DNA from: a virus
Lineage: Duplodnaviria > Caudoviricetes
Direction: 5' to 3' (one strand)
IMG/VR virus record: IMGVR_UViG_3300037247_001786
Location: 320,001 to 384,000 of that record
DNA: 64,000 nucleotides
Shown: in pieces, positions 50,892 to 55,257 of the stretch
How positions within the stretch are numbered: position 1 is the stretch's first letter
Layout of the letters: each line of letters opens with the position of its first letter
Translations under genes and position numbers: made by a program
The notes under the pieces: generated by a model
Told to the model about the DNA's origin: nothing
Database searches by the model: none
What the model saw: only the letters and a program-made list of their open reading frames with translations

Positions 50892-51731
50892 TTGTATAAT
50901 AAATATGCGGAGAGAGAAATGTACCAATCGTTAAATAGTATAAAATATGTAGAAGTATCCCGTTTATCGACTGGTATACCTGAATTAGATTGGATATATG
51001 GAGGAGATGGTACTAATGTAGGTCTCCCTCAAGGTAAGATAAGTTTATGGAGTGGTCCATCAGGTTGTGGTAAGAGTAGGTCATTAATTACTCTTTCTAA
51101 GAAAATGAGTTCCGCTGGTCATAACGTTCTTTACTTTCAGAATGAAGTTAATTTGAGTGATTTTCGTTCTTGGGCAGGCAATGAACCCTTGGCTCCGAAT
51201 CTTTATGCATCGGATACAACTACTTTGGCTGGACAAGTAGATGAGATAACGAAGAGCAAAGCAAGAGTTGCTATCATTGATAGTATCGGATTGATTAAGG
51301 AATTCAAGACAGGACATGAGACTAATGTAAGAAACATTTATGCTCATTACCGTGCATTAACTAAAAAGACTGGTGTTCATGTTATCTTTGTTTGTCAGTT
51401 GAATAGTAATTATAAGATAAAAGGTTCATCTGAAATCCTGTATTTAGCTGATATTTCAGTTGATTTAGACAGGCATGTAGTTAATAAGAAGATAATTAAG
51501 AACCACTTTGTGATAGGCATCAATGGTCGTAATGGTGGTAAACATCGTTATGGCGAGATGGGCGATGACATAACTACTCTTTGGAGGTATTCTCCTGGTG
51601 GAGCTATATGTATCTCTAATAATAGGGGATCCTCTGATATAGTTCCTTATGGTCATATTGATAAAAAGGTAGTTGATACTGTTTCTGGATCTACTTTCTT
51701 TGTGCCGAAACTAAATTTTAAATTTGCTTGA
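50892..51731 (+). CDS. RadA/Sms-like RecA-fold ATPase lacking Zn finger and Lon-like domain
   Basis: STGIPELDWIYGG, GPSGCGKS, IIDSI, G.....YLAD, KHRYG (cf. KNRFG). Confidence 0.8.
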   Translation: MYNKYAEREMYQSLNSIKYVEVSRLSTGIPELDWIYGGDGTNVGLPQGKISLWSGPSGCGKSRSLITLSKKMSSAGHNVLYFQNEVNLSDFRSWAGNEPLAPNLYASDTTTLAGQVDEITKSKARVAIIDSIGLIKEFKTGHETNVRNIYAHYRALTKKTGVHVIFVCQLNSNYKIKGSSEILYLADISVDLDRHVVNKKIIKNHFVIGINGRNGGKHRYGEMGDDITTLWRYSPGGAICISNNRGSSDIVPYGHIDKKVVDTVSGSTFFVPKLNFKFA

Positions 51732-51894: not shown

Positions 51895-51922
51895 TTGAAA
51901 GTGATTTATATTATGCTATAAT
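51895..51922 (+). promoter_or_regulatory. Sigma70-like promoter upstream of the RNA gene region
   Basis: TTGAAA GTGATTT...TGC TATAAT. Confidence 0.75.
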
Positions 51923-52185
51923 GCATTTTCGAGTCAAGGGCAAGAGATTGTTGCTTGGCAGTGATTTTATTTTTTCAGCGATTTAAAATTACAACAGAAA
52001 CTAGGTAATAGGGTCTGAACATAAACCCTATCATCTTTAAAAAATATTATTTTAGTTAAAGTTATTTTAGTTAAAGTGACGATATAGTAGTATATCAACG
52101 ATATGCCGATAAGTGAGAGACGACTTGGGGCGTCGATGCCGAGAGATAGCCGTCCGACATATTTGTTGATGAATAGTAGTATACT

Positions 52186-52258
52186 GACGTAGTAACAGTA
52201 GGGTTAAGGTTGTTGATTTCGGTTAACTTCTTGGGCAGTTCGAATCTGTCCTACGCCA
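52186..52258 (+). tRNA. Degenerate tRNA-like gene (possible Arg TCG)
   Basis: GACGTAG/CTACGCC acceptor, GGCAG-TTCGAAT-CTGTC T arm, no D stem, 6-nt anticodon loop. Confidence 0.45.
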
Positions 52259-52523
52259 TTGATGGTACTGAGGATGAGATAGGAAATAAGGTTGACTAAT
52301 CTTATCTTAGGGTAGATTCTTTCGAGGCTATTTGAAAACGTTGTAAGTACGGAATAAAGTGATAGATAGAATAGAATCGAGATGGTAGCTTCAACCGATT
52401 GTTGACGATGTTAACCCTTACAACAATCCCTTGAGGTGTGTAGGTATTATCATTTATAACGATGAAGATATAGACTAAGTAGGTCGCACCTATTGGAGGG
52501 TCACTCCCTTCCATCGTTGCCAA

Positions 52524-52611
52524 GACGAAGAAACAGTAGGGTTTAGCCTCAATGACTCCGGGTCAACCGGACGTATTTGAGGAATGGGGAGTTCGAATCT
52601 CTCCTTCGTTA
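52524..52611 (+). ncRNA. tRNA-like RNA with elongated anticodon arm
   Basis: GACGAAG/CTTCGTT, GGGAG-TTCGAAT-CTCTC, CCTCAA/TTGAGG capped by TCCGG-GTCAA-CCGGA. Confidence 0.6.
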
Positions 52612-52685
52612 TTATTAGTTGGTGTCGTCTAAATCTGGCAGGTAACACAAGGGCATGCTCTGAATAACTTGTCCAACTGATTAGA

Positions 52686-52771
52686 TACGAAGTATGTACG
52701 CTCTTCGGAGTAGGATAGTTGGCTTATTCTTGCAAGAAGGTCAACTGTGGGTTCGACTCCCACCTTCGTAG
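52686..52771 (+). ncRNA. tRNA-like RNA with TTCG hairpin in D position and elongated anticodon arm (CT TGC AA)
   Basis: TACGAAG/CTTCGTA, GTGGG-TTCGACT-CCCAC, AGTTGGC/GTCAACT. Confidence 0.6.
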
Positions 52772-52957
52772 TTTAAGTATAGTATTATCCGCCACCGTCG
52801 AATACTTTTAGTATTTGTGGGAGAATTTTATTATACTTATGATAGCTGCCTTCGGGCTAGGGATTTATAACCCCGATGAGAAACCAAGTTATAATGGATT
52901 TAGTAACATAGTTATTAGAGTGAACTATCTGTCCTATAGGGACTAATAATTATATAT

Positions 52958-53040
52958 TGCAAAAAGTAGTTTAATTATGGTAAAATGCCGTTGTTACGCT
53001 TAGCGATGCGGGTATGAAGGTTCGAATCCTTTCTGAGCAA
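52958..53040 (+). pseudogene. Degenerate tRNA (possible Arg ACG)
   Basis: GAAGG-TTCGAAT-CCTTT T arm, CGTTG TT ACG CT TAGCG arm, poor acceptor stem. Confidence 0.35.
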
Positions 53041-53482
53041 TATAATTTTAAAAAATAAAAAAGGATTTATTTCGATAGTTTCGGAATAGAGTATTAATAG
53101 TAATTTAAATAGGATTAACAAAAGATGACTAACCTAAAGCATAATTTATCAGTATCTTGGCATTGTATGAGTATAACACTCAGACAACAGGCTATTTATA
53201 GCTTGGTCCCTGCCAATTTTGCGTCAGATAAAGAACGCGATGGTTAGCCGCTTTTGAATATATATACCCCATTTCAAAGGCGACTACCGAAAAGTAGTTG
53301 CCTTTTTTTTATGGAAAAATATAAAATGGATAAAATGATAAATAATATAGTTAAAGAGCTAAAGAGAAAAGAAGATATAAGAATCTTCTATCGTTTAGCT
53401 GCTAAATATGGTTTCTATGAAGGGAACCCGATCGTGACTAGAACGATCAAAAGAAAACCGTGTAGCTTATGTAATTAAATTT

Positions 53483-53804: not shown

Positions 53805-53876
53805 GGAGATGTAGCTCAGTGGTAGAGCGTTGCCCTGAAGAGGCAAGCGTGGGTGGTTCGATTCCACTCGTCTCCA
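53805..53876 (+). tRNA. tRNA-Phe(GAA)
   Basis: GGAGATG/CGTCTCC; loop CT GAA GA. Confidence 0.9.
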
Positions 53877-53922: not shown

Positions 53923-53993
53923 AGTTGTGTACTTTAACTGGCAAAAGCGACCGCTTGTGGCGACGTATATGGGTTCGAGTCCCATTATGATTA
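53923..53993 (+). tRNA. tRNA-Thr(TGT), degenerate
   Basis: D and T arms intact; anticodon stem mismatched, wobble-rich acceptor. Confidence 0.5.
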
Positions 53994-54206: not shown

Positions 54207-54295
54207 GAAGAGGTAGCTCAGTTTGGTAGAGCGTCAGTCACGTCTGGCCAGACTATGAAATCTGAAGGTCGCAGGTTCGAATCCTGCCCTCTTCA
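54207..54295 (+). tRNA. tRNA of undetermined identity with 15-nt hairpin insertion in the anticodon loop
   Basis: Perfect GAAGAGG/CCTCTTC, GCTC/GAGC, GCAGG-TTCGAAT-CCTGC; 22-nt loop containing GTCTGGCCAGAC. Confidence 0.75.
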
Positions 54296-55197: not shown

Positions 55198-55257
55198 GGG
55201 ATAGTTAAAAGTGGGAGCCTGCCGCGGAAGTTAAGGGTTCGAGTCCCTTCTATTCCA
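55198..55257 (+). ncRNA. 60-nt truncated tRNA-like RNA (acceptor and T arm intact)
   Basis: GGGATAG/CTATTCC, AAGGG-TTCGAGT-CCCTT; short middle containing CT GCC. Confidence 0.55.

Follow-up and report, generated by a model that had tools for sequence, protein, structure and literature searches.

Why would a phage begin its tRNA array with RNAs that resemble tRNAs at their acceptor ends and possess no anticodon arm? This question is raised by the window analyzed here, a stretch of 64,000 nt that corresponds to bases 320001-384000 of a single 460,978-bp contig (G+C, 34%). The 460,978-bp virus record has direct terminal repeats and is rated complete, and the phage DNA is present in a marine-sediment run and, in part, also in the marine runs of a second study. 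ARAGORN identified 37 tRNA genes genome-wide, 33 of which lie in one plus-strand array that runs from 53.5 kb of the window on and has a tRNA-Val at 53482 as its first called member. None of these 37 real tRNAs has an encoded CCA, and the phage encodes a CCA-adding-type nucleotidyltransferase as well as RNA ligases. Phage tRNA arrays are usually seen as reserve decoding capacity or as protection from the anticodon nucleases of the host. Just upstream of the tRNA-Val lie the elements E1, E2, E3, and EB (Table 1), the first three of which had been described in a first-pass annotation as related tRNA-like RNAs with an intact acceptor/T helix and remodeled D and anticodon regions.

Table 1. Features of the region that precedes the called tRNA array (window coordinates; R1 is the covariance model described in the text)
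Feature	Coordinates	Strand	Basis or remark
KaiC/RecA-like ATPase gene	50892-51731		Just upstream of the tRNA-like stretch
E1, type-A tRNA-shaped RNA	52186..52258	+	Sequence, fold, 66.3 bits with R1
S1, conserved ~200-nt structured spacer RNA	52259..52457	+	7 orthologues
EB, fourth superfamily member	52458..52522	+	8 copies, covariation
E2, type-A tRNA-shaped RNA	52524..52611	+	Sequence, fold z-score of -3.0, 75.9 bits with R1
S2, spacer between E2 and E3	52612..52685	+	Can self-close by a terminal helix, as read from the sequence
E3, second family	52686..52771	+	Sequence, fold, 8 orthologues
Intrinsic-terminator-like hairpin and T run	53276..53305	+	Ends the segment that carries the tRNA-like RNAs, S3, and the conserved ORF of 40 codons

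The 5' acceptor strands reported at 52186, 52524, and 52686 were found as described, and each pairs with the strand directly after a T arm. E1, E2, and E3 each contain a 7-bp acceptor, a 5-bp T stem, a 7-nt T loop, an unpaired discriminator (A, A, and G, respectively), and a U-rich trailer, and they share both their strand and this kind of 3' trailer with the 37 real tRNAs of the phage. In the window, 35 occurrences of the T-arm motif stand against an expectation of 1.9, and a genome-wide scan for the consensus T arm together with a pairing acceptor located such combinations only inside two tRNA clusters; on the basis of this excess and this confinement we regard E1-E3 as real elements and not as chance matches. 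The minimum-energy folds of all three are cloverleaf-like, with the anticodon position occupied by a closed irregular hairpin whose cap is UUCG in E1 and a loop of 5 nt in E2 and of 4 nt in E3. ARAGORN did not call E1, E2, or E3, no Rfam family matched over E1-E3 at the gathering score, and the Rfam tRNA model, searched at E values up to 10, matched only 52704-52771 with 23.5 bits, which is below the 29-bit threshold of RF00005 for a canonical tRNA. The acceptor/T-stack feature of canonical tRNAs is present in E1-E3, EB being the exception with its 6-bp arm and 5-nt loop, and the canonical anticodon arm (a 5-bp stem and a 7-nt loop with U33 and a purine at position 37) is absent.

E1 and E2 belong to one family, here called type A. 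E1 comprises a 7-bp acceptor in which A2·C71 is mismatched, a D hairpin that is invariant, a UUCG-capped hairpin of 28 nt, the T arm, and the discriminator; in its orthologue (L055, positions 1-73) the central hairpin is kept and the T stem and pair 5:68 are changed on both sides. E2 has a fully paired acceptor (including G1·U72), shares the D hairpin of E1, and continues with an irregular hairpin of 43 nt ending in its 5-nt loop, the T arm, and the discriminator. Related strains of the second study differ from E2 in the central hairpin and show no differences in the acceptor, D, or T parts. A covariance model, R1, was built from a MAFFT alignment of 12 type-A copies. Its scores were 47-84 bits for family members and ~31 bits at most for ordinary tRNAs, and in the phage genome it identified E1 and E2 only. 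Within the 12-copy alignment the acceptor nucleotides A2, C3, and G4, the D-position block, and the T loop were invariant, 92% of the cells of the acceptor, D, and T helices were paired, and seven pairs were changed on both sides, compared to a mean of 3.8 in shuffled alignments and 0-4 when partners were slid.

Relatives of the locus were found in metagenomes. A blastn search of 52100-53100 against a phage GenBank collection gave no match, pattern scans of IMG/VR gave either nothing or two chance matches at 18 bits with R1, and an IMG/VR search with the neighboring ATPase gave no relative. Homologues of the KaiC/RecA-like ATPase with ~50-78% identity occur on metagenomic contigs of up to 255 kb, and eleven ATPase-bearing loci from such contigs were used as the relatives. 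Downstream of the ATPase gene, the close relatives have a stretch with few genes and, beyond it, tRNA-Val, tRNA-Glu, and the remainder of the array; elements of the E1-E3 kind occupy the same place in this gene-poor stretch. Scanning metagenome contigs with a 19-nt E1/E2 signature yielded ten further contigs with true members. The exact type-A signature was matched 14 times in 185,579 prokaryote species genomes; none of these matches has a T arm and several clearly lie in protein-coding sequence, so we attribute them to chance and count none of them as a type-A element. Two contigs that carry the phage-type ATPase and a tRNA array, L010 (GCA_023131495.1) and L003 (GCA_004196315.1), are filed as bacterial metagenome-assembled genomes, and one protein on these contigs is labeled Candidatus Babeliales; both are probably mis-binned phage DNA.

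The first-pass annotation had proposed a covariance-model search, with a failure to find conserved homologs counting against its interpretation; the search returned 29 type-A copies on 19 contigs. In these copies 94% of the cells are paired, four of the five T-stem pairs covary, two T-stem pairs do so in about half of the copies, and pair 5:68 flips between A-U and U-A. At position 2:71 an A stands opposite C in 23 of the 29 copies and forms A-U in the other 6. The acceptor of E1, which had been described as intact, carries this mismatch, the norm of its family. The shared D region of E1 and E2, previously described as stemless, can fold into a stem of 3 bp that closes a 6-nt loop containing GG. 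This stem is 98.8% paired in the 29 copies; because it is almost invariant, covariation neither confirms nor refutes the stemless description. Between the D hairpin and the T arm every copy (29/29) has a single hairpin, 28-61 nt in length except for one of 101 nt, capped by UUCG in 10 and by a GNRA tetraloop in 3 of the 29, with a mean fold z-score of -3.1 relative to shuffled sequences. Lengthening of the anticodon helix had been noted for the second and third elements only, but all three elements lack a 7-nt anticodon loop, E1 ending in its UUCG tetraloop. When the copies are read from the plus strand, G·U pairs are frequent, which fits an RNA read from that strand.

These data bear directly on the suggestion that the elements have no function as RNA and are either decaying tRNA pseudogenes or repeats at the DNA level, for example recombination or attachment sites. 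Large phage tRNA arrays often contain pseudogenes, and the failure of the tRNA detectors on E1-E3 is what such decay would predict. Decay does not, however, explain why helices are changed on both sides in phages whose neighboring ATPase proteins are only ~70% identical, why the hairpins are capped by stable tetraloops, why G·U pairs that are workable only in RNA from the plus strand are common, or why the position in the array is fixed among relatives. We give this explanation scarcely any credence.

E3 differs from the type-A elements. Its 7-bp acceptor starts U-A-C, a UUCG-capped hairpin takes the D position and a long hairpin the anticodon position, the T arm has a T loop that deviates slightly, and the discriminator is G. 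Its R1 score is only 23.7 bits, the level of ordinary tRNAs, and we therefore filed it as a separate family; of the three-member family originally suggested, E1 and E2 remain together and E3 stands apart. In eight E3 orthologues the acceptor starts U-A-C; its pairs 1-3 do not vary, and its pairs 4-7 covary. The copies share a short conserved single strand, a tetraloop-capped D-position hairpin (UUCG in most copies), a conserved purine-rich linker, the long hairpin, the T arm, and the G discriminator. Within this family (n = 8) 97.4% of the cells are paired, 13 of 20 pairs are changed on both sides, and there is support for each of the four helices, which confirms the outer boundaries that had been assigned to E3. 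The alternative start at 52704 offered by the Rfam match was rejected on inspection by eye, as it is unpaired in the copy of L001.

The initial list of three elements missed a fourth, EB, which has the same kind of acceptor. EB has a 7-bp acceptor starting A-A-C-G, 14 nt of conserved single strand, and a hairpin that covaries; where the T loop is expected, a G+C-rich arm of 6 bp bears an invariant 5-nt loop. Nine of its 19 pairs are changed on both sides among the eight copies. In seven of the eight copies CCA is encoded after the discriminator, and in those seven exactly 1 nt separates it from the next tRNA-shaped element. The EB bin is the deepest-covered part of the E1-E3 stretch in other runs, a measure that comes from DNA contigs and thus speaks only to presence and strain differences.

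The acceptor common to the families starts N-A-C-G and has C-G at 3:70 and G-C at 4:69, with A2, C3, and G4 invariant while the T stems vary freely. Relatives carry more variants on the same acceptor theme, some without a D arm and others with long inserts. Given that the N-A-C-G 5' end is common to E1, E2, E3, EB, and these variants, we treat them as one superfamily. A ~200-nt CCA-ended RNA located 30 kb downstream was considered as a member and was rejected since it has no N-A-C-G acceptor. The leader 5' of E1 (52100-52170) starts A-A-C-G, and its ends can pair around a hairpin whose loop contains GG; it is without a T arm and may be a further, degenerate member. The sequence comparisons show E1, E2, E3, and EB to be conserved, structured, non-decoding tRNA-shaped RNAs whose helices are kept by compensatory changes and whose acceptor stem hardly varies in sequence between paralogues or between phages; in EB, where the T loop is missing, the gene conserves the CCA end. 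The superfamily is conserved in a clade of huge marine-sediment phages. The proposal that the locus holds a duplicated family of tRNA mimics is upheld by these results, and the family is conserved: the parts read by RNase P, RNase Z, and the CCA-adding enzyme (the acceptor/T stack, the T loop, the GG-containing D loop, and the discriminator with its U-rich trailer) are kept, the helices covary, and the phage encodes a CCA-adding-type enzyme.

A second part of the first-pass annotation, which likened the elements to the tRNA-like domain (TLD) of tmRNA, fared differently. On this reading the elements, as RNAs reduced to the TLD, would bind SmpB and EF-Tu and either enter ribosomes or sequester SmpB. 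Their shape fits, with an acceptor/T arm, a small D region containing GG, and a long helix at the anticodon position. However, every copy has C-G at pair 3:70 (type A, 29 of 29; E3, 8 of 8; EB, 8 of 8) and none has G3·U70, so the alanine identity pair associated with AlaRS charging is absent; EF-Tu handling requires aminoacylation. Furthermore, the elements contain no tag frame or pseudoknot, the centers of the type-A copies being simple hairpins of the lengths given above, no model of the tmRNA clan matched 52170-52790 at E values up to 10, and the tmRNA search of ARAGORN found nothing at E1-E3. The phage genome is also without an SmpB or EF-Tu-type gene, and the host presumably has SmpB. We consider TLD-only RNAs very improbable here and conclude that the tRNA-mimic family holds and that the relation to tmRNA does not.

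Could the elements nevertheless be real tRNAs, whose anticodon arms carry intron-like inserts that are spliced out by a phage ligase/kinase/Tpt1 kit? RNA ligases are encoded by the phage, and the array does contain one element, at 54207-54295, that looks like a tRNA-Phe with a 17-nt insert. In the type-A family, by contrast, there is no conserved anticodon: U33 and a purine at position 37 coincide at the would-be anticodon loop (after a 5-bp stem) in only 6 of 29 copies, which is about the chance level by estimate rather than by computation, and the would-be anticodons differ. No excision from the 28-nt center of E1 could leave a 7-nt loop on a 5-bp stem, and the central sequences differ freely between orthologues. 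ARAGORN with introns allowed made no call at its normal threshold, and at a lowered threshold it gave implausible "introns" of 102 and 121 nt that span separate elements. Spliced tRNAs are thus a highly unlikely identity for these RNAs.

Several other members of the array are unusual. In the element at 54207-54295 the insert is palindromic and lies in the anticodon loop of a tRNA-Phe-like body, ARAGORN calls the element only with introns allowed, and a normal tRNA-Phe is also present in the array, at 53805. The sequence at 53923-53993 is tRNA-shaped without a normal anticodon arm and scores 28.4 bits with the Rfam tRNA model, just under the threshold; L001 (13877-13970) and L003 (12828-12896) carry a conserved counterpart at the equivalent point of the array. 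Two elements of 59-60 nt, at 55198-55257 and 57727-57787, have perfect acceptor and T arms and no D arm, with orthologues at 13929-13987 of L003 and 9714-9774 of L005.

The spaces between the tRNA-shaped elements are themselves structured. S1 was wedged between two tRNA-shaped elements in all seven of the orthologues extracted, and in each of them it starts at the base after the discriminator of the tRNA-like element. Covariation in seven contigs supports both its terminal helix of 10 bp and a hairpin of 9 bp, and the terminal helix ends a few nucleotides before the next element, here 5 nt before EB; S1 has no Rfam match. The terminator-like hairpin and T run that closes the stretch is kept in L001, L003, L005, and L012. 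Downstream of E3 (52840-52945 and 53125-53305) there is a conserved structured stretch followed by the 40-codon ORF, which is conserved in relatives with length changes that are in frame, and then by the strong terminator-like hairpin itself. At the other end of the region, a near-consensus sigma-70-type promoter (51895-51922) lies right after the ATPase gene, with a hairpin ~100 nt later (52006-52033), and in relatives the corresponding position is likewise occupied by a promoter, a short RNA, and a terminator. This promoter and hairpin may define a separate small RNA upstream of the tRNA-like operon.

The arrangement of S1 suggests that the tRNA-shaped elements could serve as pure punctuation or scaffolding, being cut by RNase P and RNase Z only to define the ends of S1, S3, and EB, with no function in trans. 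The position of S1 in seven of seven orthologues, with its terminal helix flush with the predicted cuts, is what punctuation would produce. The central hairpins are, moreover, simple rods of free length, and neither they nor the EB single strand show above-chance complementarity to the rest of the phage genome, the longest shared words being no longer than in shuffled sequences. No phage-encoded partner was found among those sought: the genome contains no TROVE/Ro, SmpB, Thg1, or EF-Tu-type GTPase, and no tRNA-synt_2b, tRNA-synt_1, tRNA-synt_2c, FemAB, Leu/Phe-transferase, or Acetyltransf_6 was identified. On the other hand, any tRNA would do for punctuation, yet the acceptor and D parts are almost invariant in 29 copies while the T stems drift; tandem copies lie 1-10 nt apart with nothing between them to release; and CCA is conserved on EB. 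Because of these three features we consider punctuation alone insufficient, and a role limited to it rather unlikely, and we favor an additional role for the acceptor end as a ligand.

The reading that we prefer combines both aspects. In it, non-decoding RNAs are matured by tRNA enzymes, release their neighbors in the process, and act through their acceptor ends on one protein; we assign it a probability of about one-half. The features that end-maturation enzymes read are retained in the elements, which argues for excision by RNase P and RNase Z and for completion with CCA. The operon transcript would be cut by RNase P at the 5' ends of the tRNA-shaped elements and by an RNase Z-type activity after the discriminator, and CCA would then be added by the phage's own CCA-adding enzyme. 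EB, which has no T loop, carries the CCA in its gene instead. The same cuts would release interleaved structured RNAs such as S1 and give S1 its ends, in the way that tRNA-like elements punctuate transcripts in other systems. Engineered tRNA scaffolds of the same design are precisely processed and stable in E. coli (PMC3753655). With no anticodon and a near-identical acceptor stem the RNAs cannot decode and probably work via their tRNA-like end, so the excised molecules would act through the CCA-bearing acceptor. We expect the RNAs to be ligands of one acceptor-specific protein, either as its substrate or as a decoy for an enzyme directed at tRNA ends. As a counterpoint, part of the acceptor conservation could come from gene conversion among paralogues and not from a protein partner.

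A more far-reaching version, which we offer as speculation and think unlikely, is that the phage clade keeps its own "identity class" of anticodon-less tRNAs, in which several paralogous bodies are combined with one invariant acceptor (N-A-C-G, including a deliberate A2·C71 wobble), a required CCA, and a dedicated enzyme. Such RNAs might be charged with a residue for non-ribosomal use, or they might act as decoys that shield the real tRNAs of the phage from a host immune enzyme that attacks acceptor ends.

At this locus the first transcription unit of the array is devoted to conserved RNAs that are unable to decode and have one shared acceptor sequence. The arrangement would imply a function directed at tRNA ends in huge phages that has so far not been described; we found no account of the tRNA-shaped RNA family in the literature and no model for these families in Rfam 15. 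The families are ready for use as covariance models and represent a natural counterpart of the engineered tRNA scaffold, and E1, E2, E3, EB, and S1 provide a concrete set of RNAs for studies of processing, CCA, charging, and partners.

Comparison with known systems places the elements near several of them and within none of the classes tRNA, tmRNA, or YrlA, from which they differ in defining features. YrlA, the Y RNA-like RNA of bacteria and phages that is bound by Ro/Rsr, is likewise a non-coding RNA with a tRNA-like module. The two ends of YrlA RNA are located in its Ro-binding stem rather than in an acceptor. The present phage, moreover, is without a TROVE/Ro gene, and the E1-E3 stretch has no match to an Rfam model of the Y-RNA type. 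The tRNA-like domain of tmRNA resembles the elements in its acceptor/T arm, its reduced D region, and the long helix that replaces the anticodon arm; compared to tmRNA, including the reduced forms that consist of the TLD only, the elements here have no G3·U70 pair, no mRNA-like domain, no match to the Rfam tmRNA models, and no SmpB from the phage. RNAC and RNAD of phage T4 are released from tRNA-containing precursors by RNase P. These two RNAs are the nearest phage precedent. Small stable RNAs of this kind are transcribed with the tRNAs and accumulate as discrete species, and the location of E1-E3 inside the array and their strand fit that kind. The T4 tRNA region encodes them as small non-tRNA RNAs (species 1 and 2) whose roles are unknown (PMC3014915). 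In contrast to the T4 pair, the present elements fall into several paralogous families that have one acceptor sequence and the entire upper half of a tRNA in common, and they occur in huge marine-sediment phages that are not T4-like. The engineered tRNA scaffold of Ponchon and Dardel, which together with the tmRNA domain is nearest in shape, also keeps the acceptor, T, and D arms and replaces the anticodon stem-loop with an inserted hairpin, and the tRNA machinery of bacteria recognizes, processes, and stabilizes such RNAs (PMC3753655); the scaffold, however, is a man-made carrier of cargo, whereas the "cargo" of the phage RNAs is often a short tetraloop-capped rod and their acceptor is conserved. 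Nearest in logic are the tRNA-like elements of MALAT1 and murine gammaherpesvirus 68. The mascRNA that follows MALAT1 and the tRNA-like RNAs upstream of the pre-miRNAs of murine gammaherpesvirus 68 are non-decoding, are cut by RNase P or RNase Z, and receive a CCA tail, and the cutting of either defines the ends of neighboring RNAs. Compared to these, the phage elements, whose processing is a prediction, belong to a bacterial virus, lie inside a true tRNA array, and comprise several families built on an invariant acceptor stem.
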